Source: Candidatus Limnocylindria bacterium (GTDB taxonomy: Bacteria; Chloroflexota; Limnocylindria; Limnocylindrales; CSP1-4). Taken from it: DNA of 64,000 bases. Location: positions 10,460-74,459 of the forward strand of contig DATKBB010000021.1 in assembly GCA_035514295.1 (NCBI GenBank), given 5' to 3'. Under the pieces are notes generated by a model that worked only from the letters and a program-made list of their open reading frames with translations, did not search any database and had not been told where the DNA came from. This document shows positions 7,115 through 51,933 of the stretch, piece by piece. Within the stretch, counting starts at the first letter, position 1; the number at the start of each line of letters is the position of its first letter. The position numbers and the translations under genes are program-made.

Positions 7115-7989
7115 AGTGATTCCTTCTCTGCCTCCTCGGCTGTCCCGGGCTGGTGGGCCACGACGCGCTCGCGCAGGCGGATCAGCGCCTCCACGATGCG
7201 GTCCTCTTCGGCGCGGGTGTGGCCGGTGGCGGTCAGGGTGGTGCTCGCGGCGTAGCACAGTCCGGTGACCTGGAATAGCGCCACGCCGTAGCAACGCAGG
7301 CCGAGCCCGCTCTCCTCATCGTCGACGGCGAGGCCGTCGCGGGCGCGCACCTGCTGCAGTTCGGCCATCAGGCCCTGCAGCGTGCGGATACTGCGATGGG
7401 TCATCACGGGAAGCGTGCGCACCCCCCGGTAGCGGTGGTTGATCTCCTCGTCGGCGAGCATCGACAGGGCGGCCTTGCCCATTGCTGTCGTCGAGGCCGG
7501 TATGCGGGTGCCCACGCGTGAGGCGAGCTGGATCGTGCGCGTCCCGTCGAGCCGCGCGACGTAGACCACGTTCGTCCCCTCGAGTCGGCCGAGCTGGACG
7601 GTCTCGCCGGTCTCGGCGATGAACTGACGGGCAGCATCGATGAACAGCTCGTTGAGCGCGTCGCCTTCCAGGAAACGGACGGCCAGCTCGACAACGGCGC
7701 TGCCCAGCACGTACTCGCGCGTGGTGGTCAGTCGGTAGGCCAGCCCCGCCGCGGCGAGAGTGGACATCAGGCTGTGCGCCGAGCTCTTGGGTATGCCCGC
7801 CAGGCGGGCGAGCTCAGATACGCCCAGCGGCCGGCGGTGTCGGCTCAGGATGTCGAGCAGGGCGACGGCCTTGAGCACCGCCGGGCTACGCTCGCTGCCC
7901 GATCGGTGGCCATCGGTGGCGTCGTCGTCTTCGACGGCCGGGGCGAGCAACTCCGTGACCTGCAAGTCCGTGACCTGGTGATCGGTCAT
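7111..7989 (-). CDS. IclR family transcriptional regulator
   Basis: N-terminal wHTH (LKAVALLDILSRHRRPLGVSELARLAGIPKSSAHSLMSTL) plus a C-terminal IclR effector domain. ATG at 7989 (a TTG at 7995 is also possible). Confidence 0.85.
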   Translation of the reverse strand: MTDHQVTDLQVTELLAPAVEDDDATDGHRSGSERSPAVLKAVALLDILSRHRRPLGVSELARLAGIPKSSAHSLMSTLAAAGLAYRLTTTREYVLGSAVVELAVRFLEGDALNELFIDAARQFIAETGETVQLGRLEGTNVVYVARLDGTRTIQLASRVGTRIPASTTAMGKAALSMLADEEINHRYRGVRTLPVMTHRSIRTLQGLMAELQQVRARDGLAVDDEESGLGLRCYGVALFQVTGLCYAASTTLTATGHTRAEEDRIVEALIRLRERVVAHQPGTAEEAEKESL

Positions 7990-35244: not shown

Positions 35245-36450
35245 ATGAGGGTGGCACTCCTGGGCCTTGGCACGGTCGGCGGCGCGGTGGCCAGCCGGCT
35301 GCTCGACGACGGCTGGCGGGCCGATGTTGAGGCTCGCGGCCTCCGACCCCCTGCGCTGGTGGCCGTCGGCGTGCGTGAGCCGGGTCGGCAGCGGGCGGTC
35401 GAGGTGCCGAAGTCGGTCGATCGGACGGACGACCTGGCCGCCCTCGTAGTCCGCGATGACATCGACGTCGTCGTCGAATTGATCGGTGGGCTGGAGCCGG
35501 CAGGGGAGCTGGTCGAGAGAGCGCTGGAGGCCGGAAAGTCGGTCGTCACGGCCAACAAGGCGCTGCTGGCGGAGCTGGGCCCCGCCCTCGAGCGCCTGGC
35601 TCGGCGGAGCCTCGTCGCACTGCGCTTCGAGGCGGCGGTCGCCGGCGGCATTCCAGTCCTGTCGCCTCTTGCGCGCGACCTCGCCTCCACGCGCATCAAC
35701 GCGGTCCGCGGCATCGTCAACGGCACGACCAACTTCATCCTCAGCGCGATGTCGGATGGCGGCCGCGCCTACGAGGAGGTCCTGGCCGACGCGCAGTCTC
35801 GCGGCTACGCAGAGGCCGATCCCAGCGGCGACGTCGAGGGACGGGACGCGGCGCACAAGCTGGTGCTGCTGGCGCGGCTGGCCTTTGGGGTCTGGCCGCA
35901 GCCATCCGGTCTGCGGCGGGCGCCGGCCAAGGTCGGTGGCGACGGCAGTCCGGGCATAACCGGCGTGTCGGCAGCGGACATCGGTGCTGCCGCCGAGCGC
36001 GGACACGCGATCAAGCTGATCGCGTTTGCCGGCCGGCCGCGGGGGGAGGCGGCTGGCCGGTTGGTCGGCTGGGTGGAGCCCTGCGCCGTGTCGCAGAGCT
36101 CGCTGCTCGGCTCGACGGATGGTGTCCTCAATGCCGTGGAGGTGCTCGGTTGGCCGCTGGGACGGCTGGCGCTACAGGGCCCGGGGGCCGGTGCCGACGC
36201 GACGAGCAACGCCGTGCTGGCCGACCTGTTGGCATTGGTCCGCGGCGAGGGCTCCACCTGGGCCGCTCTACCCGAGGCGCTGCCGCTGGGCGAGCTCGAC
36301 GCCGGCCATGGCCAGCCGGTACGCTGGTTCTGGCGCGAGGGAGGCCGCGGCTGCCTGAGCGAGCCGCTCACGCTCGACGACGCGCGCGCCTCGCTGGCCG
36401 ACCGCCTGCCCGCCGACACGACCCTCTACCGCGTCCTGGAGGCCGACTGA
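35245..36450 (+). CDS. hom: homoserine dehydrogenase
   Basis: MRVALLGLGTVGG..., ...VVTANKALLA..., ...GIVNGTTNFILS.M..., ...AEADPS.DVEG.DAAHKL. Confidence 0.9.
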   Translation: MRVALLGLGTVGGAVASRLLDDGWRADVEARGLRPPALVAVGVREPGRQRAVEVPKSVDRTDDLAALVVRDDIDVVVELIGGLEPAGELVERALEAGKSVVTANKALLAELGPALERLARRSLVALRFEAAVAGGIPVLSPLARDLASTRINAVRGIVNGTTNFILSAMSDGGRAYEEVLADAQSRGYAEADPSGDVEGRDAAHKLVLLARLAFGVWPQPSGLRRAPAKVGGDGSPGITGVSAADIGAAAERGHAIKLIAFAGRPRGEAAGRLVGWVEPCAVSQSSLLGSTDGVLNAVEVLGWPLGRLALQGPGAGADATSNAVLADLLALVRGEGSTWAALPEALPLGELDAGHGQPVRWFWREGGRGCLSEPLTLDDARASLADRLPADTTLYRVLEAD

Positions 36451-36453
36451 GTC

Positions 36454-37569
36454 ATGCGCATGAGCGACGTGCTCCGCCAACTGCGTCAGCAGCACACCAT
36501 GGCCGACGCCCGGCCGCGGCTGCTCCAGCGCTACGCGGCTTTCCTGCCGGTGAGCGAGGCCACTCCGCCCTTGTCGCTGGGCGAGGGCTACACGCCGCTG
36601 GTCCACGCACGCAACCTGGGCCGGGCCATTGGCTGTCCGCTGCTGCACCTCAAGGTGGAGGGCAACAACCCCACCGGCTCCTTCAAGGACCGCGGCATGG
36701 TGCTGGCCGTGGCCAAGGCGCTGGAGGAAGGCGCCGATGCGGTCGTTTGCGCCTCGACCGGCAACACGGCCGCCTCGGCGGCAGCATACGGCGCGGCGGC
36801 CGACCTGGAGGTCGTGGTCGTGCTGCCCAGGGGCCAGATTGCGCTCGGCAAGCTGCTCCAGGCGCAGATGGCCGGCGCGCGGGTGGTCGCCGTGGACGGT
36901 AATTTTGACGATGCGCTGCGAGTCGTGCGCGGGCTCGTAGAGGAGGGCTCCGACGGACGGCGGGTGGCTCTCGTCAACTCGGTCAACCCCTACCGCATCG
37001 AGGGCCAGAAGACCGCCGCCTTCGAGGTCTGCGAGGACCTGGGCGGTGCGCCCGATTACCTGGCCATCCCCGTCGGCAACGCCGGCAACATCACCGCCTA
37101 CTGGCGTGGTTTCGGCGAGTACCTGAAGGCCGGCCTGGTCGAGGCCCGGCCGCGGATGCTGGGCTTCCAGGCGGAAGGGGCAGCGCCGCTTGTCGTGGGC
37201 CGGCGAGTGGAGCGGCCGGAGACCATCGCCACGGCCATCCGAATCGGCGATCCGGCCAGCGGCGAGGGGGCGCTGCGGGCGCGCGACGAGTCGGGCGGGG
37301 TGATCGAGGCGGTCAGCGACGACGAGATCCTGTCCGCCTACCGCGACCTGGCCCGGCTGGAGGGCATCTTCGTCGAGCCGGCCAGCGCTGCTTCGGTGGC
37401 CGGCGTGCGCAAGCTGGCCGCCGCCGGCCACATCGACCCGGGCGCGACAATCGTGTGCGTGCTGACCGGGCACGGACTGAAGGATCCGGACAGTGCCGGT
37501 CGGAACGTGCTGCCCGTGCTCGAGGCTGGGCCGGGAGTGGAGAAGATACGCAAGGTGCTGGGCTGGTGA
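36454..37569 (+). CDS. thrC: threonine synthase
   Basis: PLP-lysine motif [23 protein letters not shown] and ...[13 protein letters not shown]. Confidence 0.9.
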
Positions 37570-38480
37570 AGGTCGCCGTCGAGGTCCCTGCCAGCAGCGC
37601 CAACCTGGGCGTGGGCTTCGACGCGCTGGCCATGGCCTTGGAGCTGACCCTGCGCGTCGACGTCGAGGCGCTGCCCGGCGATTTGAGCGAGCTGCAGGTC
37701 GTGGGCGAGGGCACCGGGCGGCTGGGGCTGAACGACGCCAATCGATTCGTTGCCGGCTTGCGCCGCGGCCTGCAGGAGCTGGGCGCGGCCGACGAGCAGT
37801 CGGCCTGGCGGATCGAGATGTTCAACGACATCCCTGTGGGCCGGGGCCTGGGCTCGTCTGCCGCGGCGGTGATCGGGGGGCTGCTCTGCGCCGAAGGCCT
37901 GGCCCAGCGTGAGCTCGGCCGGGAGCGGCTGCTGGCGCTGGCAGTCGAGATCGATGGCCATCCCGACAACGTGGCGGCCGCCCTGCTGGGCGGTTTCGTG
38001 ATCGTCACCGCCGGCGCCGAGTCCGGCACGTGGCAGGTGCTGCGCCTCGACACGCCGGCCGAGTTGCGCGCCGTCGTCTTCATCCCCGAGCGCGAGCTGC
38101 CCACCAGCCGCATGCGCGCCGCGCTGCCGGACAGCGTGCCGCGCTCTGACGCGGTGCACAACGTGGGTCGCGCCGCGCTGCTGGTGGCGGCCATCGCGCG
38201 CGGGGAGTTGGAGTTGCTCAGCGCGATGTGCCAGGACCGCCTGCACGAGCCGTACCGGGCGGCCATCTACCCCGAGTTCCCGGCGCTCGAGCGCGCCGCG
38301 CTGGAGGCCGGCGCCCTCGGGGCGGCGCTTTCGGGGGCAGGCTCGACGGTGATCGCGCTGTGTCGCGCCGCCGAAGCCGGCCTCGTCGCCGCGGCCATGG
38401 AGAGCGCGGCTGGGCGGCTGGGCCTGCGCGGTCTCGCCCGCGACCTTGCGCCGCGTGGCGCCGGTGGCCGCCTTGTCTAG
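37566..38480 (+). CDS. thrB: homoserine kinase
   Basis: GTG at 37566 overlaps the thrC stop (GTGA). [13 protein letters not shown] and the GHMP motif [12 protein letters not shown]. Confidence 0.9.
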
Positions 38481-39732
38481 CCTCGTCGTCCAGAAGTACG
38501 GCGGCTCGTCGCTGGCCGGCGCGGAACGTATCCGTCACGTGGCCGGCCGCATCGCCGAGCGGCGCGCGGAGGGGGCGGACCTGGTCGTGGTGGTCAGCGC
38601 CATGGGCGACACCACCGACGACCTGATCACGCTGGCCCGGCAGATCACCGATGAGCCCGATCCGCGTGAGCTCGACCTGCTGCTGGCCACCGGCGAGCAC
38701 ATGAGCGGCACGCTCGTGGCGATGGCGCTGCACGCTGTGGGCCAGCCGGCGATTTCGCTGACCGGCGCGCAGGCGGGGATCCGCACGGATGCCAGCCACG
38801 GCCGGGCGCGCATCGCCAACGTGGACCCGCTGCGCGTCCAGCAGGAGCTCGAGCGTGGGCGGGTCGTGATCGTGGCCGGCTTCCAGGGCGCAACGGATGA
38901 GTCGATGCTAACCGGCGAGGTCACCACGCTCGGCCGGGGAGGCTCTGACACCACCGCCGTGGCGCTTGCCGCCCGGCTGTCGGCACAGCGCTGCGAGATC
39001 TACACGGACGTGGAGGGCATCTTCACCGCCGACCCGCGGCTGGTCCCGGACGCGCGTCTGCTGCCGGTGATCGGCTACGAGGAGATGCTCGAGCTGGCCA
39101 TCCAGGGCGCGCAGGTGATGCAGACGCGCGCCGTCGAGCTCGGCTGGGTCAACGGCGTCGAGATCGCAGTGCGCTCCACGTTCAGCGACAATCCCGGCAC
39201 GGTCATCAGGGAGGTCGCCGGAGTGGAGCAACGCAACAAGGTCCGCGGCCTGGCCACGGATCGCAACGTGGCCAAGCTGACGCTGGTCGCCGTGCCGGAC
39301 CGGCCCGGCGTGGCGCGGGCCGTCTTCGCGCCGCTGGCCGAGGCCGGCATAAACGTCGACATGATCGTCCAGAACATCGGCCATGCCGGCGCGACGGACC
39401 TGTCGTTCACAGTCAACTCGGCCGACCTTGCCGCCGCCCGTCGCGCGCTTGGGCCGGTCGTCGCGGAGCTTGGCGCCCAGGAACTGACTACGGCCGCTGA
39501 CGTTGGCAAGGTCTCCATCGTGGGCACGGGCATCCAGAACGCGCCGGGTTACGCGGCGCGGATGTTCGGCGCGCTGGCCGAGGCGGGCATCAACATCGAG
39601 ATGATCTCCACCTCGGACATCCGCATCACCTGCATCATCGACGAGGCCGAGCTGGAGCGGGCCGCGCGCGCGCTGCACGCCGCCTTCCAGCTCGAGCAAC
39701 CGGAGCCGGTGCTGGGTGAGGTGGCGGGATAG
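38464..39732 (+). CDS. lysC: aspartate kinase
   Basis: [10 protein letters not shown]..., ...[13 protein letters not shown]-terminal ACT repeats. The start is ambiguous among TTG 38446, GTG 38455, GTG 38464 and TTG 38473. It overlaps the thrB end. Confidence 0.9.
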
Positions 39733-39981: not shown

Positions 39982-40794
39982 GTGACCGCGCCCACCTTCC
40001 TGAGCCGTCTCGAGCGCTTCGAGACCGTCGATTCCACCCAACGCGTGGTGCGTGAGTGGCTGGACGCCGGGACGCCGGAGGTGGCCGTGGCGGTGGCCGC
40101 CCACCAGAGCGCCGGACGCGGCCGGCAGGGGAGGAGCTGGAGCGCTCCCGGGGGTGCGGCGCTGCTGCTCTCGGCCGGCTTCCGGCCCACGACCCTCCTT
40201 GCCCACCATGGCTGGCGGCTGGCGGCCACGCTCTCGCTGGCCATGCTGGATGCGGCCGAGGAGGCAGCCGGCCTGAAGGACGACACGCTCTGGCTGAAGT
40301 GGCCCAACGACATCGTCGCCGATGCCTCGGACGGCCGGCTGGTCAAGGTCGCCGGCGTGCTGGGCGAGGCGGCAGGTGAAGCAGAGCGCGTCGAATCGGC
40401 CGTGGTGGGCATCGGCGTCAACACCGACTGGCCGGCCGAGCTCTTCCCGCCCGAGCTGGCGCCGTCGATGTCCAGCCTGCGCGAGGTGGCCGGCGGGCGC
40501 CCCATCGACAACGAGCAGCTGCTGGAGTCGTTCCTGGACCGCCTCGAGCCGCGCTACGAGGCACTCCGCACAGGCAGCTTTGATGCCGGCGGATGGTCGC
40601 GCCGCCAGCGCACGACAGGACGGCAGGTCGAGGTGGAGAGCGGCGCTGAGGTGCTGCGCGGGGAGGCGCTCGGGGTGGACCCGGAGTCCGGCGCGCTGAT
40701 CGTGCAGCACGAGGGAGGCCGGCGGCACGTAGCCAGCGGCGAGGTACTGCGCTGCCGGATCATCGCGGGATTGCCCACGACGCGTAACGGATAG
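39982..40794 (+). CDS. birA: biotin--[acetyl-CoA-carboxylase] ligase (group I, no N-terminal HTH)
   Basis: ...ETVDSTQRV..., GRGRQGRSW motif, 270 aa, no DNA-binding domain. Confidence 0.85.
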   Translation: MTAPTFLSRLERFETVDSTQRVVREWLDAGTPEVAVAVAAHQSAGRGRQGRSWSAPGGAALLLSAGFRPTTLLAHHGWRLAATLSLAMLDAAEEAAGLKDDTLWLKWPNDIVADASDGRLVKVAGVLGEAAGEAERVESAVVGIGVNTDWPAELFPPELAPSMSSLREVAGGRPIDNEQLLESFLDRLEPRYEALRTGSFDAGGWSRRQRTTGRQVEVESGAEVLRGEALGVDPESGALIVQHEGGRRHVASGEVLRCRIIAGLPTTRNG

Positions 40795-40804
40795 ACTTCC
40801 CCTG

Positions 40805-41401
40805 GTGTTGAGGAGAGGGAAGGAGCAGGCGGAAGGCCGCCTGGTCCAATTTGACGCTGACCGTCCCGCCGTGGAGGCGGCCAAGCGTGATGCGCGCCGC
40901 TTCGAGGCGCTCTACCGGAAGTACGTGGCCCAGGTGTACAGCTTCGCTCTCTATGAAACACGCGATCACCACTCGGCGCAGGACGTGACCTCGCTCGTCT
41001 TCCTGCGCGCGCTGTCCGGCCTGCACGGCTTTCGCGAGCAGGCTCAGCCGCCGGATAGCAGCTTCAGGGTGTGGCTCTTCCAGATCGCGCGCAACACGCT
41101 CAGCAACGAGCGCCGCCGTGAGCGCCGCCATCCCGAGGCGCCGCTCGACCTGGCGGCCCACTTCCCGGCGAAGCAGGACGTGGAGCAGACTGCCGTCTCG
41201 CGCGACGAGCTGGTCCGTGCCTGGCAGGTCATCGAGGAGCTACCGCCCGACCGGCGGCGGGCGCTGGTCCTTCGTTTCGTGGAGGAGATGAGCGCGGCGG
41301 AGATCGGCGCGGTGTTGGGCCGCTCGGAGGGCGCAGTGCGCGTGCTGATCCACCGCGCCGTGCGGAGCGTGGCCCAGCACCTGGGCCACCGGTCCGACTG
41401 A
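40805..41401 (+). CDS. RNA polymerase sigma factor, ECF (sigma-70 group 4) family
   Basis: Region 2 (FEALYRKYVAQVYSFALYETRDHHSAQDVTSLVFLRAL..., WLFQIARNTLSNERRR) and region 4 (LPPDRRRALVLRFVEEMSAAEIGAVLGRSEGAVRVLIHRA). Exact start is uncertain. Confidence 0.85.
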   Translation: MLRRGKEQAEGRLVQFDADRPAVEAAKRDARRFEALYRKYVAQVYSFALYETRDHHSAQDVTSLVFLRALSGLHGFREQAQPPDSSFRVWLFQIARNTLSNERRRERRHPEAPLDLAAHFPAKQDVEQTAVSRDELVRAWQVIEELPPDRRRALVLRFVEEMSAAEIGAVLGRSEGAVRVLIHRAVRSVAQHLGHRSD

Positions 41402-41421: not shown

Positions 41422-41868
41422 ATGCGCGGCCAGGAAGAAGAGGCACTCCTCACCGACGCCTACATCGACGCGCTCCTCGCGGCACATGCCGGCGCGGAGC
41501 CGGCGCTTGCACCGCCCGACCTTCCGGCTGACAGCCTGCTGCGCCGGACGATCGAGGTGCTCGAGGCAGGCCTGCCCCGCTTCCATCCCAGTTTTCTGTT
41601 CGAGGAGGCTCTCGCCGCTCGCCTGCGGGCGGCGGCGCTGGGCGCGCGCCCCTCATCGACCCACGACCCGCTGGCTGCCGAGCTCATTCATCTGCCTGTC
41701 GCGGCGACCGGCGGCCTGTCCGTCGTCGCCGTCGACCGGCGGCTGCTGGTGGGCGGGGCCATCGCCTCGGGCGTCTCGCTGGCCGGGGCGGCGATGCTGG
41801 CCTGGCGCCGCCGCGAGCGTGACCGTGAGCGGCCGAGCCTCGGCGGCCGGCGCAGGTGGCTTGCCTGA
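41422..41868 (+). CDS. putative anti-sigma factor / tail-anchored membrane protein
   Basis: Immediately downstream of the ECF sigma gene. Single C-terminal TM (LLVGGAIASGVSLAGAAMLAW). No HxxxCxxC zinc motif. Its stop overlaps the accD ATG (TGATG, 41866-41870). Confidence 0.45.
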   Translation: MRGQEEEALLTDAYIDALLAAHAGAEPALAPPDLPADSLLRRTIEVLEAGLPRFHPSFLFEEALAARLRAAALGARPSSTHDPLAAELIHLPVAATGGLSVVAVDRRLLVGGAIASGVSLAGAAMLAWRRRERDRERPSLGGRRRWLA

Positions 41869-42794
41869 TGCCCATCAATCTGCCCTTCGGGCCCCGCCGC
41901 CAGTCATTCCCGCCCGACCTGTGGACGCAGTGCCCGGGCTGCGGCGAGATGCTCTACAACAAGCAGCTCGAGAAGAGCCGGCGCGTCTGCCCGCGCTGCG
42001 GTCACCACCTGCGCCTGCGCGTCGACGCCCGGCTGGCGCTCCTGCTCGACCGCGACAGCTTCGAGGAGCACGACGCCAACCTGGAGTCCGTGGACGCGCT
42101 GGGCTTCGTCGACCATAAACCCTACCCCGAGCGGCTTGAGGCGGCGCAGGTCGCCACCGGCATTCGCGACGCGGCGGTGTGGGGCACGGGCAGGATCGGC
42201 GGCACCCCGGTGGTGCTGTGCGTGATGGACTTCGCTTTCATGGGCGGTTCGATGGGCTCGGTCGTGGGCGAGAAGGTGACCCGCGCCGCGGAGGCGGCAC
42301 TGGCCCAGCGCCTGCCGCTGATCGTCATCTCTGCCTCGGGCGGGGCGCGCATGCAGGAGGGCACGCTGGCGCTGATGCAGCTGGCCAAGACCTGCGCCGC
42401 GCTGGGGCGGCTGGCCGACGCCGGCGTGCCCTACATCAGCGTGATGACGGACCCGACCACGGGCGGCGTGTTCGCCTCCTTCGCCGCGCTGGGCGACGTC
42501 AACCTGGCCGAGCCCAACGCCTTGATCGGCTTCGCCGGTGCGCGCGTGGCGGCGGGCACCATCGCCGAGTCGCTGCCCGACGGCTTCCAGCGCGCCGAGT
42601 TCCTGTTCGAGCACGGGTTCGTGGACCGCGTCGTGCCTCGCGGTGAGCTGCGCGATGCGCTGATCGGCCTGCTGCGTTACCTGCGTCCTGCGCCGCTGCC
42701 AGAGCGCGGCAACGGCAACGGTGCCGCGCCGCTGGAGCGTTCGCTCAACTATCTCGAGAGCATCGCCCGGGGCGAGGGCAGCGGGCGTGGCTGA
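41868..42794 (+). CDS. accD: acetyl-CoA carboxylase carboxyltransferase subunit beta
   Basis: N-terminal Zn ribbon CPGCGEMLY...CPRCGHH, then the carboxyltransferase body (...MDFAFMGGSMGSVVGEK...). Confidence 0.9.
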   Translation: MPINLPFGPRRQSFPPDLWTQCPGCGEMLYNKQLEKSRRVCPRCGHHLRLRVDARLALLLDRDSFEEHDANLESVDALGFVDHKPYPERLEAAQVATGIRDAAVWGTGRIGGTPVVLCVMDFAFMGGSMGSVVGEKVTRAAEAALAQRLPLIVISASGGARMQEGTLALMQLAKTCAALGRLADAGVPYISVMTDPTTGGVFASFAALGDVNLAEPNALIGFAGARVAAGTIAESLPDGFQRAEFLFEHGFVDRVVPRGELRDALIGLLRYLRPAPLPERGNGNGAAPLERSLNYLESIARGEGSGRG

Positions 42795-43866
42795 GGCGGT
42801 CGAGGTCGAGTTGCAGGAGCAGCCGCAGCCGGACGCGCAGCCGCGGGTCGACGCGGATGCCCTGCGTGCCGCCGTCTGGGCGCGCGTGCAGCTGGCCCGC
42901 AACGTGCGCCGGCCGCACACCCTCGAGTTGGTGCAGGCGATGGCCACCGACGTCATCGAGCTGCACGGCGACAGGCTCTACCGCGACGACCCGGCCATCT
43001 GTGGCGGCTTCTGCCGGCTGGACGGCCGGCGGGTCGTTTTCGTGGGCCACCAGAAAGGCGCGGAGACGGACGAGAACGTGCGGCGCAACTTCGGTATGCC
43101 CCATCCGGAGGGCTATCGCAAGGCGATGCGCCTCTTCGCGCTGGCCGAGCGCCTGCAGCTGCCCGTGGTGACCTTCATCGATACGCCGGGCGCCTTCCCC
43201 GGACCGGCCTCGGAGGAGCGCGGCGTGGCCGAGTCGATCGCCCGCTCGATCATGGTCATGACGCGCCTGCGTACGCCGGTCGTCACCGTGATCACCGGCG
43301 AGGGCGGCTCGGGCGGGGCGCTGGCAATTGCCGTGGGCGACATCGTGCTGGCCCTCGAGAACGCGATCTACTCGGTGATCAGCCCGGAGGGCTGCGCGAG
43401 CATCCTCTGGCGGGCGCCCGAGCGGGCGCAGGAGGCGGCCGTGGCGATGCGCCTGACCGCGCGCGAGCAGCAGGCGTTGGGCGTCATCGACGACGTCATT
43501 CCCGAGCCGGGCGAGGGCGCCCACCAGGATCCGGCCGAGACGGCCCGGCGCATCCGCGAGCGGATCGTACCGCTGCTCGACGCGCTGGCCGGCCGCGACC
43601 GGAGTGCCCTGGTCGAGGCACGTTACGCGCGCTACCGGCGCATGGGCGAGTTCGCCACCCTCGCACCAAGCTCGACGGCCCGCCCGGAGCGTGGTGGGCT
43701 GGCCGAGCGCCTGCGGGCCCTGCTGGAGAGCGGCCGCGCCGCATTGGGCGGCCCTGACGGTGCGCCGCTGCGCCCTGACGGTGCGCCGCTGCGCCCTGAC
43801 GGTGCGCCGCTGCGCCCTGACGTTGCCCAGGCGGACGACGATCCGCCGCTGCGCGAGGACGTCTGA
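42787..43866 (+). CDS. accA: acetyl-CoA carboxylase carboxyltransferase subunit alpha, with a repeat-containing C-terminal tail
   Basis: GTG at 42787 overlaps the accD end. ...ELHGDRLYRDDPAICGGF.RLDGR.V.FVGHQKG..., ...FIDTPGAFPG..AEERG. Confidence 0.9.
   Translation: MAEAVEVELQEQPQPDAQPRVDADALRAAVWARVQLARNVRRPHTLELVQAMATDVIELHGDRLYRDDPAICGGFCRLDGRRVVFVGHQKGAETDENVRRNFGMPHPEGYRKAMRLFALAERLQLPVVTFIDTPGAFPGPASEERGVAESIARSIMVMTRLRTPVVTVITGEGGSGGALAIAVGDIVLALENAIYSVISPEGCASILWRAPERAQEAAVAMRLTAREQQALGVIDDVIPEPGEGAHQDPAETARRIRERIVPLLDALAGRDRSALVEARYARYRRMGEFATLAPSSTARPERGGLAERLRALLESGRAALGGPDGAPLRPDGAPLRPDGAPLRPDVAQADDDPPLREDV
43752..43822 (+). repeat. perfect 21-bp tandem repeat, 3 full copies plus a partial one, in frame inside the accA tail
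   Basis: ccctgacggtgcgccgctgcg occurs at 43752, 43773 and 43794, with a partial copy from 43815. It encodes (PDGAPLR)x3. Confidence 0.9.
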
Positions 43867-44479
43867 TGGGCACCGACGAACAGCTGGGCGCCCAGCCGGC
43901 CAACGGCACCGCACCGGCCGACGGCCTACCCGACGACGAAGGGCGGCGAGTGCTCTCCCGGCTGGCCGACGAGTTGCTGCCCGTGCTGATCGCCCGCCTC
44001 GAGGCGAGCAACCTGGGCGAGCTGGAGCTGCGCCAGGAAGGCTGGCGGGTGCGGCTGCGCCGGCCGCTCCCCGTTAACGGCGTGGTGGGCGGAGCGTCTG
44101 CCCCGGCCCTGCCGCACGCTCAGGGCCAGCCGGCGACGGGCGCCAGCCGGCACGCAGCCGCCACGGCAACGGCTGCGCAGGCCGCCGCCGGCGCCTCGCC
44201 TGACAGCCGCCCGGCGGCTGCGGGCCGGGCCGAGCGCCAGCGCCTGACGGTCACCTCACCGGCAGTCGGCTATTTCGTGCCGCGCGACGGGATGGGCCCG
44301 GGCAGCAGCCTGCGCAACGGTGACCCGCTGGGCCACATCGACGTGCTCGGCGTGCGCCAGGAGGTCGTGGCACCGGCCGACGGCATCCTGTCGCGGCTCG
44401 AGGCTGAGGCCGGCCAGGCCGTGGAGTACGGCCAGACGATTGCCCGGCTTGATCCAGACACGCGCGAGAGCCGCGGCTG

Positions 44480-44480
<1 letters not shown>
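43866..44480 (+). CDS. BCCP-like protein lacking the biotinyl-lysine (no lysine anywhere in the protein)
   Basis: Full BCCP architecture: N-terminal helical segment, Ala/Pro-rich linker, C-terminal biotinyl-domain-like SPAVGYF...GDPLGHIDVLGVRQEVVAPADGIL...GQAVEYGQTIARL. DVLGV replaces EAMKM. TGATG coupling to accA (43864-43868) and accC (44478-44482). Confidence 0.75.
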
Positions 44481-45841
<1,361 letters not shown>

Positions 45842-45857
45842 GCTATCCGGAGGACCA

Positions 45858-46340
45858 ATGACCGAAGTGGCAGACGCCCTGCGCACCCCCGGCGTCGTGC
45901 TCAGCACGCGCGAGATCGAGCGGCTCATACCGCACCGCTGGCCGTTCCTGCTGGTCGACCGGATCGTCGAGTACGACCCGGGGCGCGGCTACCTTCGGGG
46001 CGAGAAGGGCGTAACCGCCACGGAGTGGTTCTTCCAGGGCCACTTCCCGGGCCTGCCGGTCATGCCCGGTGTGATGCAGGTCGAGGCCCTGGCGCAGACG
46101 ATGGCCGTGTACGTCGCGCAGCAGGACGGTTTCGGCGACCGCCTGGGCTTGTTTGCCGGTATCGAGGAGTGCCGCTTCAAGCGCGTCGTTCAGCCCGGCG
46201 ACCGGCTCAGCCTGGAAGTGACCATGGAGAAGCTCGGTCGTCGCTTTGGTCGGGGACGGGGCGTGGCCAGCGTGGACGGCGAGGTCGCCTGCGAGGCGCT
46301 GATCTCGTTCGTCATCCCGGCTGCGGGGGTGGTGCGCTGA
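45858..46340 (+). CDS. fabZ: 3-hydroxyacyl-ACP dehydratase FabZ
   Basis: ATG at 45858 follows GGAGGA. LIPHRWPFLLVDRI..., FFQGHFPG.PVMPGV...EALAQ. Confidence 0.9.
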   Translation: MTEVADALRTPGVVLSTREIERLIPHRWPFLLVDRIVEYDPGRGYLRGEKGVTATEWFFQGHFPGLPVMPGVMQVEALAQTMAVYVAQQDGFGDRLGLFAGIEECRFKRVVQPGDRLSLEVTMEKLGRRFGRGRGVASVDGEVACEALISFVIPAAGVVR

Positions 46341-47104
46341 TGGCCCAGCGGTTGGCCGTCCTGTCGGACATCCACGGCAACGTGGCCGCACTAGAGGCTG
46401 CGCTGAAGGACATCAAGCGCCACAAGCCGGACCGCCTATTGATCTGCGGCGACCTGGTGATGAACGGTCCTCGCCCACGCGAGGTCGTCCAGCGCGTGCG
46501 CGAGCTCGAGGCCGACGGCGCGCTGGTGGTGCAGGGCAACACGGACATCGCGGTCGCCGACTTCGACTTCGCGGCAGCCTTCCCGTGGCTGGAGGAGGTG
46601 CCGGCAGCCCAGCGGGCGGCGGCCGAGTGGACCCACGACGAGCTGGCCGACGACGAGCTGGACTACCTGCGCCGGCTGCCGGCCGAGCGGCGGCTGTGGG
46701 CGGCCGACTCGTTGGTGCTGACCTGTCACGGCTCACCCGGCAGCCAGACCAACGGCCTGCCGCTCGACCTGGACCCCAGCGTGACCGTCGAGCGCGTGAC
46801 CCGCACCGACGCGCGGGTCATCGCCTGCGGTCACACGCACGTCGCCGATGTCCGAGAGCTGGGTCGCAAGCTGATCGTCAACCCGGGCTCGTGCGGTTAC
46901 GCCTTCGATGGAGATCCGGCGGCGTGCTGGGCGCTGCTCACGCTGCCCGACTCCGACGTTCAGGGAGACGACGACCAGCCATCCGCCGAGCTCTACCGGC
47001 CGGCCTATGACGCGCAGGCTGTAGCCGAGGAGGTCTCTGCCCGCGGCGTTGCCGGCGACGTCTATCGGGCCGCCACTATTCGCACGGGCCGGCTGGTGCG
47101 ATGA
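46340..47104 (+). CDS. metallophosphoesterase family protein (YfcE/MJ0936-like)
   Basis: ATG at 46340 overlaps the fabZ stop (TGATG). LAVLSDIHGN, ICGDLV, QGNTD, ACGHTH motifs. Its stop overlaps the fabF ATG (ATGA). Confidence 0.8.
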   Translation: MAQRLAVLSDIHGNVAALEAALKDIKRHKPDRLLICGDLVMNGPRPREVVQRVRELEADGALVVQGNTDIAVADFDFAAAFPWLEEVPAAQRAAAEWTHDELADDELDYLRRLPAERRLWAADSLVLTCHGSPGSQTNGLPLDLDPSVTVERVTRTDARVIACGHTHVADVRELGRKLIVNPGSCGYAFDGDPAACWALLTLPDSDVQGDDDQPSAELYRPAYDAQAVAEEVSARGVAGDVYRAATIRTGRLVR

Positions 47105-48363
47105 GCCGGCGACGGCGGGTGGTGGTGACGGGCATGGGCTGCGTCACGCCGCTGGGCAACGACGTGCCGACCTTCTGGGCAGGCCTGGTCGAGGGCCGGT
47201 CCGGCGTGCGCCCCACCCAGTCGTTCGATCCGGCCCGGATCACCAGCCGCATCGCCGGCGAGGTGCAGGACTTCGACGCTTCGGCCGTGCTGGATCGCAA
47301 GGAGCTGCGGCGCAACGATCGCTACACACAGTTCGCACTGGTGGCCGCGCGCGAGGCGCTGGATTCGGCGGGCTTGCCGGAGCGGCTCGAAGGCGAGCTG
47401 GCCGAGGCGACCGGCGCGATCGTCGCCTCCGGGCTCGGTGGCACGGGCACGCTCATCGAGCAGATCAGCATCAGCGCGACACGCGGGCCGGACCGCGTCT
47501 CGCCCTTCTTCGTGCCTATGGGCATCGCCAACATGGCCTCCGGCCAGGTGGCCATCTCGTTCGGCGCCCAAGGGCCCAACTTCTCGACCGTCAGCGCCTG
47601 CGCCAGCGGTGGCCACGCCCTGGGCGAGGCGGCCGAGACGATCCTGCGCGGCGACGCCGAGATGATGCTCGCCGGGGGTTCGGAGACACCCGTGTACGAG
47701 GCGCTGGTCGCCGGTTTCGCAGCGATGCGCGCACTCTCCACGCGCAACGACGACCCCAGCGGCGCCAGCCGGCCCTTCGACGAGGGCCGCGACGGCTTCG
47801 TGATTGCCGAGGGCGCCGGCGTGCTCGTGCTGGAGGAGCTGGGCCATGCCCAGCGCCGCGACGCGCCCGTCCTGGCCGAGCTGCTGGGCTACGGCGCCAC
47901 GGCCGACGCCGTGCACATCACGCTGCCCGCCCCGGGCGGCATGGGCGGCGTCCGCGCCGCGCGGCGCGCACTGGCCAAGGCGGGCATCGGCGCCGACGAA
48001 GTCGATCACGTCAACGCCCATGCCACGGCGACGCCGGAGGGCGACCCGGCCGAGCTGAGCGCCTTCCAGACCATCTTCGGCGAGCACGCCGCCAGGGTCA
48101 GCATCACGGCCACCAAGGGCGCCATCGGGCACACGCTGGGCGCGGCGGGCGCGCTTGGCTCCATCGCGGCCATCTGCGCCATGCGCGACGGCTGCGTGCC
48201 GCCCACGCTGAACCTGACCGACCCGTCGCCGGCCGTGGGTGAGCTCGACTGCACGCCGCTGGTGGCCAAGCGCCGTTCGTTGGACACGGCGCTGGTCAAC
48301 GCGTTCGGCTTCGGCGGCCAGAACTCGGCGCTGCTGCTGCGCCGCTGGGCGAACGGGGCGTGA
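47101..48363 (+). CDS. fabF: beta-ketoacyl-ACP synthase II
   Basis: RRVVVTGMG..TPLG, active-site ...STVSACASG..., ...NAHATATPEGD..., ...GHTLGAAG..., NAFGFGGQNS. Confidence 0.9.
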   Translation: MSRRRRVVVTGMGCVTPLGNDVPTFWAGLVEGRSGVRPTQSFDPARITSRIAGEVQDFDASAVLDRKELRRNDRYTQFALVAAREALDSAGLPERLEGELAEATGAIVASGLGGTGTLIEQISISATRGPDRVSPFFVPMGIANMASGQVAISFGAQGPNFSTVSACASGGHALGEAAETILRGDAEMMLAGGSETPVYEALVAGFAAMRALSTRNDDPSGASRPFDEGRDGFVIAEGAGVLVLEELGHAQRRDAPVLAELLGYGATADAVHITLPAPGGMGGVRAARRALAKAGIGADEVDHVNAHATATPEGDPAELSAFQTIFGEHAARVSITATKGAIGHTLGAAGALGSIAAICAMRDGCVPPTLNLTDPSPAVGELDCTPLVAKRRSLDTALVNAFGFGGQNSALLLRRWANGA

Positions 48364-48830
48364 TGACCGACGAAGCGCAGCCGCAGGGCATGGAATTGCT
48401 CGAGCTGATCGACCGCCTGGAGCAGCTGCTGCTGCGCTCCGAGCTTGACGAGCTGGAGGTGGAGGCGGCGGGCATCGGCCTGCTGCTGCGCAGTCCTTCG
48501 GCCGTGGCGGCGATGATGCCCGCCGGGGGCCCGTCGGCCGCCGCCGGCGGGGGGGTTGCCCAAGCTGCCGAGCCGGAGCCGGAGTCGGCGCGCAGCCATG
48601 CCGTGCTGGCGCCGCTGACCGGCCTCTTCTACACCGCCCCCTCGCCCGGCGCCGAACCGTACGTGCGGGAGGGGGCCGAAATTCACGTCGGCCAGGTAAT
48701 CGGGCTGATCGAGGCGATGAAGCTGTTCAACGAGATCAAGAGCGACATAGCCGGCCGCGTGGTGCGCTACTGCGTCGAGACGGGCGCCCTGGTGAAGGCC
48801 AAGCAGCCGCTCATCGAGGTGGAGCCATGA
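48360..48830 (+). CDS. accB: acetyl-CoA carboxylase biotin carboxyl carrier protein (canonical, with biotinyl-Lys)
   Basis: C-terminal ...VGQVIGLIEAMKLFNEIKSDIAGRVV... with the EAMK motif. GTG 48360 or ATG 48363 overlaps the fabF stop. Confidence 0.9.
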   Translation: MMTDEAQPQGMELLELIDRLEQLLLRSELDELEVEAAGIGLLLRSPSAVAAMMPAGGPSAAAGGGVAQAAEPEPESARSHAVLAPLTGLFYTAPSPGAEPYVREGAEIHVGQVIGLIEAMKLFNEIKSDIAGRVVRYCVETGALVKAKQPLIEVEP

Positions 48831-50008
48831 ACCCCAAGAGCGTGCGCATCAGCGGCTGGGGCATGTACGCGCCGGAGCGCGTGCTGACCAACGCCGAGCT
48901 GGAGCGCGTAGTCGACACGAACGACGAGTGGATCCGCCAGCGCACGGGCATCCGCGAGCGGCGCATCGCCGCGCCGCACGAGACCACAGCCACGCTGTCG
49001 GCGATTGCCGGCAAGCGGGCCATCGCCGTGGCCGGCCTCCAGCCGGACGACATCGACGTCATCCTGGTGGCGACGCTCACGCCCGACTACTGGATGCCCT
49101 CGACCGGCGCGCTGGTCAAGGAGGCCATCGGTAACACGACCGCCGCCGCCATGGACGTCATGGCCGCCTGCTCCGGGTTCGTCTACGCGTACTCGGCGGC
49201 CGACGCTTACCTCCGCTCGGGCATGTTCAAGCATGCGCTGGTCATCGGCGCCGAGACGCTCTCCCGCTTCCTCGACTTCTCGGATCGCTCGACCTGCATC
49301 CTGTTCGGGGACGGGGCAGGCGCGGTGGTGCTCTCCGCCTCCGACGAGGAGGGCGGCGGCATGGCCGGCCTGCACATGACCACCGATCCCGACGGCGCCT
49401 ACATGATCTGGCTGCCCTCGGGCGGCGCGCGCTCGCCGGTCTCCGGTCAGACGCTGGCCCGTGGCGAGCACTTCGTACGCATGGAAGGGAAAGAGACGTA
49501 CCGCTACGCCACCAAGACGCTGGCCTCGACGGCGCTGAAGGCGATCGAGCGGGCCGGCTGGCAGCCGGGCGACATCGACCTGTTCATCCCCCACCAGGCC
49601 AACGTGCGCATCATCGAGTCGGTGGCCAAGGGCCTCGACCTGCCGATGGACAAGATGTTCGTCAACGTCGATCGCTACGGGAATACGTCTGCCGCGTCGG
49701 TGGGCATCGCGCTGGCCGAGGCGGTCGACTCGGGGCGCATCAAGGTTGGTGACAAGATCGTGCTGGTCGCCTTCGGGGCCGGGCTGACCAGCGGCGCGGT
49801 GGCGCTGGAGTGGACGGCCGATCCGCGCTGCGGCGAGCGGGCGCTGGCCGTTGAGCCGCGGGCCAGCGTGCGGGAGCCCGTCGACTGGAGCTCTGTCGAT
49901 CCGATTCCCGATCGGCTGAAGCAGGTCCTGGAGGGTGGCCCGCCGACGCCGCTGGACGACGTCGTGCCGGGCGAGCCCCAGCCCGCCTCGCGCGAGATCC
50001 CGGCCTGA
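48827..50008 (+). CDS. fabH: beta-ketoacyl-ACP synthase III, with a roughly 60-aa C-terminal extension
   Basis: ATGA overlap with accB. ...TNDEWIRQRTGIRERR..., active-site AACSGF, ...IPHQANVRII..., ...YGNTSAAS.... Confidence 0.9.
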   Translation: MNPKSVRISGWGMYAPERVLTNAELERVVDTNDEWIRQRTGIRERRIAAPHETTATLSAIAGKRAIAVAGLQPDDIDVILVATLTPDYWMPSTGALVKEAIGNTTAAAMDVMAACSGFVYAYSAADAYLRSGMFKHALVIGAETLSRFLDFSDRSTCILFGDGAGAVVLSASDEEGGGMAGLHMTTDPDGAYMIWLPSGGARSPVSGQTLARGEHFVRMEGKETYRYATKTLASTALKAIERAGWQPGDIDLFIPHQANVRIIESVAKGLDLPMDKMFVNVDRYGNTSAASVGIALAEAVDSGRIKVGDKIVLVAFGAGLTSGAVALEWTADPRCGERALAVEPRASVREPVDWSSVDPIPDRLKQVLEGGPPTPLDDVVPGEPQPASREIPA

Positions 50009-50036
50009 GCGCCGTCCAGCCGCGCTTCCGCCACTT

Positions 50037-50837
50037 GGTGGGCTGTGTCGACGTTACGCCGGGCGGAGGGCGCGCTGGCTGTCGCGTCGCCGCTCAAGAG
50101 CCTACGACCGAGCGTGGACGCGGCTTGCGCACGCGCCGAACGGCTGACGGATTGCGCGTAGTGCCGGTGGGCCCGACACCTGATAGAAACCAGATGCCGC
50201 CGATGGGCTCGGCGGGGTCGCGTAGCCAAGCCCGCAACCGGAGCGACCTCGCCGGGAGTGCCGCGCTCAGCGCCTGCATGTGGCGCTCGACAGCCCGCCG
50301 CGCCGTACGGTCGTCGGGCAGGACGAGCATCCGGCCGACGGGATCGCGGCTGCCAGCCGAAACGCTCTCGCGCGAGCTTGGGCGCTAACCGGCATTTGAT
50401 GTCCAACGGCCGCAGCGTCCCCTCGATCGAGCCCAGCTCCGACTTCACCTCGACCACGAGCAAGGCCCGAAACGCCGGGTGCCAGGCGAGGATGTCGATC
50501 GAACCTCGTTTACCGTACTCGGAGAACGACACTTCGACGCGTACCTCCCAGCCGTAGCGGCGGAGCAGGGCAACGAGCAGCGCCACCAGCCTAGCGTGCT
50601 GTTCGTCTAGCAGCCGGTCGCCCGCCGCGCCGTGATGTCGGGCCGACACGACCGGCCGCGCGTCGAGCGCCGCGAGGCAGTTCTCCACTTCGCCGACGCG
50701 AAGGTGCGATAGCTCGCCTGCCTCCACTTGCCTATCTTCCAGCGGCCCACTCCGCTCGACGCAGCTAGTTCGGCCTGCGTCATCTGCGAGCGATGGCGCA
50801 GCATCCGAAGCATTCGCCCGACCCTTCGGCCGTACAT
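50037..50837 (-). pseudogene. decayed XRE-HTH / endonuclease-like regulator gene (two frameshifts, probable premature stop)
   Basis: The protein is recoverable from three reverse frames: MYGRRVGRMLRMLRHRSQMTQAELAASSGVGRWKIGK | VEAGELSHLRVGEVENCLAALDARPVV...YGWEVRVEVSFSEYGKRGSIDILAWHPAFRALLVVEVKSELGSIEGTLRPLDIKCRLAPKLARERFGWQP | VGRMLVLPDDRTARRAVERHMQALSAALPARSLRLRAWLRDPAEPIGGIWFLS... The frame changes are near 50728 and 50355. Confidence 0.65.
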
Positions 50838-50919
50838 CGTCCGATGATGCGTTGAGGCACTTGCCCACGACTTACGTGCGGTGTGTTCCCGGGAGGGGCG
50901 TCGTGGTGTCTGTTGGGCG

Positions 50920-51110
50920 TCACTTTGTGTCACTTGTCGGCTGGGTCGACCTTACGCGGGTCTGAACGCCGGATGGGGTCGCGCCGCCGCTCACAGCGCG
51001 GCCACCTGAGCGTGGATGTCCCTGCCACAGCCGCTGAAACGCTGACGGATCCGGCTTAGTGCCGGTGGAGCCGACACCTGACACAAATGAAACCCGGCGG
51101 GTGCCGCAGT
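50920..51110 (-). pseudogene. 3'-terminal remnant of a second copy of the same gene family (direct repeat of 50037..50215)
   Basis: DNA blocks are shared with 50037-50215 (gtcgac.ttacgc, gagcgtgga, gctgacggat, tagtgccggtgg.gcccgacacctga). It encodes ...VSFVSGVGSTGTKPDPSA...STQPT, against ...IWFLSGVGPTGTTRNPSA...STQPT in the first copy. Confidence 0.4.
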
Positions 51111-51183
51111 GCGCGAGTGCCGCCCATGGAGGATGGCCGCTGAAGTCGGTCACGCGGCGTTCGTGCTCGCTAAACTCGCGGGC

Positions 51184-51933
51184 ATGATCGACTTATCGGG
51201 CAAGTCCGCTCTGGTCACCGGCGGCTCGCGCGGAATAGGCCGAGCCATCGTGCTCCGCCTGGCCCAGCAGGGCGCGGACGTCTGCTTCTCGTACCGTGGC
51301 AATGCTGCCGCGGCCGAGGAGACGGCCGGCCAGGTCACCGCGCTCGGTCGCAGGGCCCTCGCCGAGCAGGCCGACGTGACCGACCCCGAGGCGGCCGAAC
51401 GGCTGGTCAAGGCGGCCCTGGAGGCCTTCGGCAAGGTAGACATCCTGGTCAACAATGCGGGCATCACGCGCGACGATCTGATCATGCGCATGACCCCCGA
51501 GAAGTGGCGCGAGGTGCTCGAGACGAACCTGTTCGGCGCCTTCTACACGCTCAAGGCGGTTACCCGCCCGATGCTCCGCGCCAAGAGCGGGCGGATCATC
51601 AATATCACTTCGGTCTCTGGGCAGGCGGGCCAGGAGGGACAGGCGAATTATTCGTCGGCCAAGGCAGGGCTGATCGGCCTGACGAAGGCCTCCGCGCGCG
51701 AGCTGGCCTCGCGCGGCATAACCGTCAATGCGGTCGCGCCGGGCTTCGTGCTGACCGAGCTCACCCAGGAGCTCCCCGAGCGGTTGCTGGACATGGTCAA
51801 GGAACGAACGCCGCTGGGCCGCTTCGGGACGCCTGAAGAGGTCGCCCAGGCGGTCGCGTTCCTGGCCTCCGACGAGGCCGCTTACATCACCGGCCAAGTG
51901 CTCGCCGTCGACGGCGGCCTGGTCATGATGTGA
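51184..51933 (+). CDS. fabG: 3-oxoacyl-ACP reductase FabG
   Basis: ATG at 51184. KSALVTGGSRGIGRAI, NNAG, catalytic S...YSSAKAG, ...GITVNAVAPGF. Confidence 0.9.
   Translation: MIDLSGKSALVTGGSRGIGRAIVLRLAQQGADVCFSYRGNAAAAEETAGQVTALGRRALAEQADVTDPEAAERLVKAALEAFGKVDILVNNAGITRDDLIMRMTPEKWREVLETNLFGAFYTLKAVTRPMLRAKSGRIINITSVSGQAGQEGQANYSSAKAGLIGLTKASARELASRGITVNAVAPGFVLTELTQELPERLLDMVKERTPLGRFGTPEEVAQAVAFLASDEAAYITGQVLAVDGGLVMM

Follow-up and report, generated by a model that had tools for sequence, protein, structure and literature searches.

The gene X, which lies between accA and accC in a 64,000-nucleotide stretch of a Candidatus Limnocylindria genome (GenBank assembly GCA_035514295.1, contig DATKBB010000021.1, positions 10,460 to 74,459 of the forward strand; hereafter the window), encodes a protein of the BCCP (biotin carboxyl carrier protein) type in which the lysine that carries biotin is replaced by glycine. 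Judged by its sequence, X is not biotinylatable at the canonical site and would have no carboxyl carrier role. X is encoded among the genes of acetyl-CoA carboxylase (ACC), i.e., accD and accA for the carboxyltransferase (CT) and accC for the biotin carboxylase (BC), and a second, lysine-bearing BCCP is encoded downstream between fabF and fabH. We propose, with moderate confidence, that X, non-biotinylatable and derived from BCCP, serves ACC as a non-catalytic subunit for anchoring or assembly, and that the fabF-linked copy carries the biotin, which would amount to a sub-functionalisation of the two proteins. The features of X, with model confidence given as the AlphaFold2 predicted local distance difference test (pLDDT), are as follows.

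43866..44480, + strand: X, lysine-less BCCP-type protein of 204 aa (open reading frame, family scans, profiles and model)
43855..43859, + strand: Shine–Dalgarno-like GAGGA, within accA and 7 nt 5′ of the X start
43932..44060, + strand: X residues 23–65, helix 23–47 and β-hairpin 52–57 and 60–65 (AccB-type α/β/β motif), pLDDT ~85
44061..44240, + strand: X residues 66–125, Ala/Pro/Gly-rich disordered linker, pLDDT below 50
44241..44453, + strand: X residues 126–196, biotinyl-type barrel-sandwich domain, thumb-less, with GQAVEYGQ kept, pLDDT ~97
44340..44354, + strand: hairpin tip D159-V-L-G162-V163, aligned to E-A-M-K-M (alignment)

A preliminary description, made from the letters of the window, had reported a lysine-free frame of 204 residues with D-V-L-G-V at the site of the E-A-M-K-M motif, and both statements were borne out: translation of 43866..44480 gives zero lysines among the 204 residues, and alignment against BCCPs places Gly162, encoded by GGC (44349-44351), at the position of the biotinyl-Lys. 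A word-indexed search with X returned 2,442 matches at E ≤ 1e-3 among 8,000 scored candidates, the weak end of which must include ordinary BCCPs; all of the best 120 matches, with 46–65% identity, have glycine at the Lys column. An exhaustive profile search over 1.84 billion cluster representatives yielded 145 clusters at E < 1e-30, which together with the listed representatives make up a set of 263 sequences. Glycine occupies the biotinyl-Lys column in 260 of the 260 members with a residue there, including 143 representatives of 50%-identity clusters, and the preceding (−1) column, which is methionine in BCCP, is leucine in all 261 residues present. L161 and G162 belong to the small number of X residues with conservation of 95% or more, which indicates that the tip is still under selection. 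The absence of lysine from the whole protein, which had also been stressed at first, is true for X but incidental, in that homologues have zero to four lysines elsewhere and only the tip site is invariably lysine-free.

The ratio of nonsynonymous to synonymous substitution rates (dN/dS) of X, calculated by the Nei–Gojobori method for 14 pairs of related genomes, was ~0.07–0.5, mostly 0.12–0.28, with a median near 0.23, compared with 0.10–0.28 for the true BCCP and ~0.1 for accC. The mean identity of the N-terminal motif is 56% within the X family vs. 54% among the true BCCPs of the same genomes, and that of the C-terminal domain 54% vs. 64%. By these measures X is a conserved family under clear purifying selection and no decaying copy. 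The preliminary description had named frameshifts and lack of conservation as signs of decay; motif and synteny were instead found conserved and dN/dS low, and the apparently frameshifted X loci are five long-read MFD assemblies. These are read as assembly errors because the neighbouring accC, accA, fabF and fabH are fragmented there too.

The layout first assigned to X, i.e., an N-terminal segment, an Ala/Pro-rich linker and a biotinyl-type β domain, is one on which hidden Markov models (HMMs), profiles and the structure model agree. Against PF00364 (Biotin_lipoyl), the check that had been suggested along with that assignment, X scores 25.3 bits and thus lies above the gathering score of 22.1; against the BCCP model TIGR00531, it aligns over positions 9–152 of 156 with 40.4 bits, which is below the equivalog cutoff of 115.2. 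A profile of 32 X-family members matches full-length E. coli BCCP (4HR7_B) with E = 1e-13, and when X is compared profile to profile with 44 canonical BCCPs, the probability is 99.3% and E = 2e-20. The latter alignment starts at the N-terminal helix, extends to the C-terminus and is interrupted by a single 6-residue gap, which falls exactly at the thumb. This thumb, a loop between β2 and β3 that is typical of ACC-type BCCPs, is missing in X according to two independent alignments, in which the 6-residue gap stands opposite E. coli SPDAKAF.

The α/β/β motif at the N-terminus of AccB serves oligomerisation and association with BC. The N-terminal motif of X aligns to the N-termini of E. coli and canonical BCCPs, and P39, L41, R44, E52, E54, W60, R63 and R65 are invariant in it. 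The linker, which holds 20 Ala, 7 Pro and 7 Gly per 60 residues, is variable among homologues in both length and sequence. The predicted C-terminal domain was compared by Foldseek with solved biotinyl domains (5GUA, P. horikoshii BCCP; 1BDO and 4HR7, E. coli; Arabidopsis BCCP1), giving target-normalised template modelling (TM) scores of 0.80–0.91. The same order of elements is predicted by AlphaFold2 for the true BCCP of the window, namely a helix at 9–25, strands at 30–35 and 38–43, a disordered segment and the β domain. In sequence and predicted fold, X is a complete BCCP-type protein end to end, and the likeness is far beyond chance. A 'lipoyl-like' adaptor of the HlyD/RND membrane-fusion type was considered and rejected: PF13437 gives 18.9 bits vs. 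a gathering score of 22.2 and covers 33 residues only, the model has no other adaptor domain and no signal or transmembrane segment, and the gene lies in an ACC operon.

Both junctions of X are as the preliminary description had placed them. The ATG of X (43866-43868) shares one base with the TGA stop of accA (43864-43866), forming TGATG at 43864-43868, and the TGA stop of X (44478-44480) shares one base with the ATG of accC (44480-44482), forming a second TGATG at 44478-44482, while the last codons of accA contain the ribosome-binding site of X. The G+C content at third codon positions (GC3) of X is 0.88, which is typical among the genes of this window of 70% G+C. A neighbourhood scan with one genome per GTDB species gave ~50 loci with X, nearly all of them labelled Chloroflexota or Candidatus Limnocylindria. 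The order common to these ~50 species-level genomes is birA...accD-accA-X-accC-(phosphoesterase)-fabF-BCCP-fabH, with birA located 5′ of the cluster in most related loci. In most clean loci the distance from the accA stop to the X start is −4 to +5 nt and that from the X stop to the accC start −4 to +3 nt, and a GAGG/GGAG-type ribosome-binding motif stands 5–12 nt 5′ of the X start in 35 of the 35. The coupling of X to the ACC genes by stop/start overlap, which had been claimed for the window, is thus conserved across loci together with the ribosome site.

The true carrier lies apart from X, between fabF and fabH, as had been stated, and coexistence is the rule: a second, AMK-bearing BCCP was found downstream in 38 of the 38 Limnocylindria-type loci with at least 5.6 kb 3′ of X, and its GLIEAMKLFNE is invariant in orthologous loci. 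The survey of orthologues called for in the preliminary description shows that the Lys-free site and the accA-X-accC order are kept, the latter with the exception of one subclade (see below). The image of a paralogue 'wedged' between accA and accC did not hold, in that the slot directly 5′ of accC is the usual accB position in most bacteria; X is more aptly called a divergent accB, at the place classical for that gene, than an inserted paralogue.

The proposed role draws on what is known of canonical BCCP, the carrier job of which is performed by a biotinyl-Lys that shuttles between BC and CT. The N-terminal ~30 residues of BCCP in E. coli ACC constitute an α/β/β motif that was modelled as an oligomeric β-barrel, the C-terminal domain of BCCP in E. 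coli ACC filaments is parked at a non-catalytic site on BC and the AccD N-terminus, and the level of BCCP synthesis is ~2x that of the catalytic subunits (PMC11160672). A Lys-less BCCP homologue, the plant BADC, binds BC and BCCP and promotes the assembly of sub-complexes, according to what PMC11926652 and PMC10440990 relate of Shivaiah 2020.

In the mechanism that we propose, X would be synthesised in step with AccD, AccA and AccC via the overlapping stop and start codons, and the true carrier in step with FabF and FabH. The α/β/β motif of X would join the assembly of AccC and the true carrier, which would take the form of the N-terminal β-barrel in its BC-bound state as in E. coli BCCP, and the highly conserved, thumb-less C-terminal domain would dock on those BC and CT surfaces that are usually touched by the BCCP domain. 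X would thereby perform the structural half of the AccB job, whereas biotin shuttling would fall to the fabF-linked EAMK protein; as a side effect, the biotin need per complex would be lowered, and that per BCCP-type chain halved. Sub-functionalisation is favoured because X keeps the structural features, loses the carrier features and would be made with AccA and AccC, whereas the carrier would be made with FabF and FabH. As for the binding partners of X and the sign of its effect on ACC activity, we infer that assembly or activation is favoured over inhibition. The 'modulator or scaffold' of ACCase suggested in the preliminary description may describe X, and the coexistence and coupling that it had noted hold.

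Several points weigh against this assignment. The X orthologues all come from metagenome-assembled genomes. In one subclade, X and accC are separated by fabD (319 aa, GHSVGEYAAL), the start of which overlaps the X stop (e.g., L033 7441-8400; also L027, L029, L031, L034-L037, L039, L042 and L043), and direct coupling of X to accC is therefore dispensable; the same subclade lacks the metallophosphoesterase that otherwise stands between accC and fabF. The conserved hairpin tip would suit an inhibitory plug no less than a scaffold. Lastly, a Lys-less family of Ktedonobacteria, in which the lysine is replaced by asparagine, is encoded between efp and xseA, where acc genes are absent from the neighbourhood, and persistence without a link to ACC leaves room for a role that is different from, or broader than, one in ACC.

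The main rival, which we regard as unlikely, casts X as a decoy or conditional negative regulator of the BADC type, which would bind AccC as a carrier does, could not be carboxylated, would compete with the true BCCP and would lower the flux through ACC, with pH, PII or acyl-ACP as possible signals. The BCCP architecture without the lysine is consistent with such a decoy, as is the invariant hairpin tip, which could plug the active site of BC or CT, and plant BADC competes with BCCP for BC as a 'conditional inhibitor' and yet is co-expressed with fatty acid synthesis (FAS) genes. However, the near-1:1 co-translation with accA and accC that the overlaps suggest would allow no separate control of the inhibitor dose, no regulatory domain or sensor is visible in X, and no PII gene is present among the annotated open reading frames (ORFs) of the window. 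In addition, the inhibitor model is disputed even for plant BADC, the role of which is debated as that of an inhibitor vs. an assembly 'glue' (PMC11926652).

That X serves another enzyme or process, unrelated to ACC catalysis, with its place next to accC being a remnant of an accB locus, is improbable. Conserved Lys-less families without an acc neighbour, i.e., that of Ktedonobacteria (efp-[K→N]-xseA) and a K→R case in the order pepP-[K→R]-xseA in L072, speak for such a function, whereas the accA-X junction and the Shine–Dalgarno motif are conserved across Limnocylindria and X matches the true BCCP in the degree to which the N-terminal AccB motif is conserved. It is more doubtful still that X acts mainly as an autoregulator of the acc operon through the N-terminal function of AccB, with a passive C-terminal domain. 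E. coli AccB residues 1–68 alone suffice to repress accBC (PMC11160672), and X shows strong conservation of its N-terminal motif; however, the C-terminal domain of X, including the hairpin tip, is at least as conserved as that motif, and the true BCCP keeps the motif too, so that a dedicated regulator is not obviously needed. The last reading, a decaying, functionless duplicate or a lysine lost to a sequencing or assembly artefact, could cite the low score against the curated BCCP model (40 bits vs. the cutoff of 115) and the very variable linker but is effectively refuted by a frame that dozens of genomes keep intact at a dN/dS well below 1 and by conserved synteny, with frameshifts confined to the five MFD assemblies, by the same invariant motif in 260 sequences from independent samples, by a typical GC3, and by the codon itself, since no base of GGC agrees with AAG and a single sequencing error thus cannot hide a lysine.

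With regard to its origin, X as a recent duplicate of the co-resident BCCP is unsupported: the C-terminal domains of X share 25% identity with Limnocylindria BCCPs vs. 32% with the BCCPs of other phyla, and X scores 22 bits against an HMM of Limnocylindria BCCPs vs. 36 bits against one of BCCPs from other bacteria. The widespread C-terminal motif GQ(A/P)VE(Y/F)GQ is kept by X as GQAVEYGQ and replaced by GALVKAKQ in the local true BCCP. By sequence as a whole, the local K-bearing BCCP is the conservative copy, with 102 bits to the generic model. A neighbour-joining tree of X, local BCCPs and other BCCPs, in which bootstrap support is weak and some distances are saturated, recovered X as monophyletic in 9 of 60 replicates and grouped X with the local BCCPs in 0 of 60. 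The gene accB is located directly 5′ of accC in other bacteria and between fabF and accC in Lachnospiraceae loci. Since accB thus adjoins accC and/or fabF elsewhere, each of the two Limnocylindria copies retains one classical neighbour.

X shares with canonical AccB/BCCP (E. coli; 1BDO, 4HR7, 8UXZ) the three-part layout, the fold and the slot directly 5′ of accC, as well as the GQ(A/P)VE(Y/F) motif and, within the N-terminal motif, the E-x-E / R-x-R hairpin. X differs in having Gly for the biotinyl-Lys and Leu for Met at −1, in lacking the thumb, and in scoring far below the TIGR00531 cutoff. As far as these residues tell, X is not an AccB member in the functional sense, although fold, layout and gene position do match.

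The closest likeness in kind is to BADC of plants and algae (e.g., Arabidopsis BADC1-3 of the plastid heteromeric ACCase), which, as X does, represents a BCCP homologue ~25–30% identical to the true carrier without the biotinylation motif, coexists with a genuine BCCP and an AccA/B/C/D-type ACC, and is expressed together with ACC and FAS genes, as the operon position would suggest for X. We note two differences. First, X is bacterial, operon-encoded and coupled to accA and accC, and it occurs in Chloroflexota rather than in plastid-bearing eukaryotes. Second, BADC has been demonstrated to bind BC and BCCP and to influence activity, whereas for X such properties are a proposal. X most likely originated independently of plant BADC, common descent being unlikely, because the genes of the ACCase regulatory network studied by Conrado et al. 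2024, with BADC among them according to the title of that paper, are discussed as arising in autotrophic eukaryotes and because X is nearest to generic bacterial accB by score; its taxonomic distribution points the same way.

The preliminary description had stated that no characterised bacterial equivalent of BADC was known, and a search of the full-text literature for a bacterial Lys-less BCCP homologue likewise found only plant papers, which is not proof that none exists; the analogy is apt. BADC is not known to occur in prokaryotes, a view based on published wording and an editorial summary. The wording is that of PMC11926652, a 2025 paper in which BADC is called 'unique to the plant htACCase'. 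If the role proposed for X is correct, BADC-like subunits would not be unique to plants, and X would be a bacterial, operon-encoded Lys-less BCCP whose role has until now been described for plant chloroplasts only.

A functional analogue only is provided by the actinobacterial ε subunits (AccE/PccE), which like X are small and encoded next to carboxylase genes. These subunits are unrelated to BCCP in sequence and fold, and they act on carboxylases of the α/β type, with fused BC-BCCP, rather than on the four-subunit ACC. As non-catalytic subunits, AccE/PccE 'glue' the holoenzyme and stimulate its activity, and they have been cited as a bacterial analogue of the glue role of BADC (PMC11926652).

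Heteromeric ACC catalyses the committed, regulated step of bacterial fatty acid synthesis and is a target of antibiotics and of engineering, and the contribution of BCCP to assembly, as opposed to biotin carriage, is still debated. If the proposal is true, the two gene groups accD-accA-X-accC and fabF-BCCP-fabH would offer a natural separation of these functions on two genes.

The phenomenon is wider than the single lineage considered at first, since Lys-less accB-like families occur elsewhere, some of them far from acc genes. The Ktedonobacteria family, of ~170 aa, has I-Q-S-L-N-V (K→N) in 120 of 120 sequences (P0358-P0477) and includes cultured Dictyobacter species as well as Ktedonosporobacter rubrisoli (e.g., L085 9001-9519 in Dictyobacter kobayashii and L086 9001-9510 in Ktedonosporobacter rubrisoli). 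This family keeps a loop of thumb length and is, by HMM score, nearer to generic accB than to X, and its loss of the lysine looks independent of that in X as far as such comparisons reach. A small, thumb-less K→G family occurs in Armatimonadota-like bacteria, with SVFGI, TVFGI, NALGI or TALGL at the tip and with the order K-less gene, small ORF, accC, nusB, folD (L051 6905-7315 and 7312-7770; L081 5575-6407; L082 488-1272). The small conserved ORF that always follows this K→G gene encodes 126–152 aa without a Pfam match, with a hydrophobic helix in L051. Single cases were also found: EVLRM (K→R) between pepP and xseA (L072 ~6800-7276), EAMHL (K→H) 5′ of accC (L073 6821-7324), and EVMGV (K→G) in an otherwise very canonical protein in the order efp-X-accC (L084 617-1072).

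These families resemble X in that they are full-length and AccB-type, have the carrier Lys replaced, with the replacement motif conserved, and sit where accB classically does (following efp or preceding accC), and they differ from X in the replacement residues and the neighbours. We tentatively suggest that Lys-less AccB-type proteins may form a recurrent, unrecognised class of non-catalytic carboxylase partners, fixed independently in Limnocylindria, Ktedonobacteria and Armatimonadota-like bacteria, in which an essential, biotin-independent structural role of BCCP would have been split off onto its own gene; such a class would be biotin-sparing and convergent with BADC. The cultured Ktedonobacteria with K→N relatives make this idea directly testable. 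The X and Ktedonobacteria families are annotated in IMG and NCBI as 'biotin carboxyl carrier protein', 'biotin/lipoyl-containing protein' or 'hypothetical', and names such as 'acetyl-CoA carboxylase biotin carboxyl carrier protein' mislead, in that such proteins cannot carry biotin.

The other genes of the cluster in the window were identified by family scans, which confirmed the preliminary assignments of birA, accD, accA, accC, fabF, BCCP and fabH.

39982..40794, + strand: birA, biotin-protein ligase of 270 aa without the N-terminal DNA-binding domain (PF03099, PF02237; TIGR00121, 133 bits)
41856..42794, + strand: accD, CT β subunit with Zn ribbon (TIGR00515, 367 bits, above cutoff)
42721..43866, + strand: accA, CT α subunit (NF004344, 377 bits)
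44480..45841, + strand: accC, BC (NF006367, 643 bits)
46025..47104, + strand: YfcE-type metallophosphoesterase, 359 aa (PF12850, TIGR00040)
47101..48363, + strand: fabF (TIGR03150, 533 bits)
48360..48830, + strand: true biotin carrier BCCP, EAMKLFNEI, with the Lys121 codon AAG at 48720-48722 (PF00364, 45.8 bits)
48827..50008, + strand: fabH (TIGR00747, 402 bits), with its start overlapping the BCCP stop

The true start of accA is probably the GTG at 42787, which overlaps the accD stop (GTGgcTGA, 42787-42794). The true BCCP has both the thumb and the N-terminal α/β/β motif; it passes NF005457 (88 bits vs. a cutoff of 87) and lies below the cutoff of TIGR00531 (96.8 vs. 115.2 bits). The fabF stop overlaps its start (GTGATG). 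The cluster thus comprises two strings of genes joined by stop/start overlaps, one from accD to accC and one from the phosphoesterase to fabH, with a gap of 184 nt between accC and the phosphoesterase. A scan of the cluster found no sigma-70-like promoter and, in the gap after accC, no terminator-like site, and no structured RNA or tRNA was found in the window.

The metallophosphoesterase has ~100 extra N-terminal residues, its stop overlaps the fabF start, and most related loci have it at the same place, after accC and before fabF. FabH, with 393 aa, continues for ~60 residues after its Pfam KAS III domains finish near residue 329, and this tail can be aligned among orthologous loci. The 1.1 kb (50010-51100) that separates fabH from a fabG-like short-chain dehydrogenase/reductase (SDR; 51109-51933) has no convincing + strand gene; a minus-strand ORF, the N-terminal part of 49675-50868, has no Pfam match. 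Farther downstream, a 954-aa ORF (59961-62825) has a coding-typical GC3 of 0.89 and no Pfam match. On the other side of the cluster, an ECF-type sigma factor (40805-41401) is encoded between birA and accD, followed by a 148-aa ORF (41422-41868) without a Pfam match, possibly an anti-sigma factor, the end of which overlaps the accD start. Directly 5′ of birA lies a threonine-pathway cluster, hom-thrC-thrB-lysC (35245-39732), the last gene of which encodes an aspartokinase with ACT domains.

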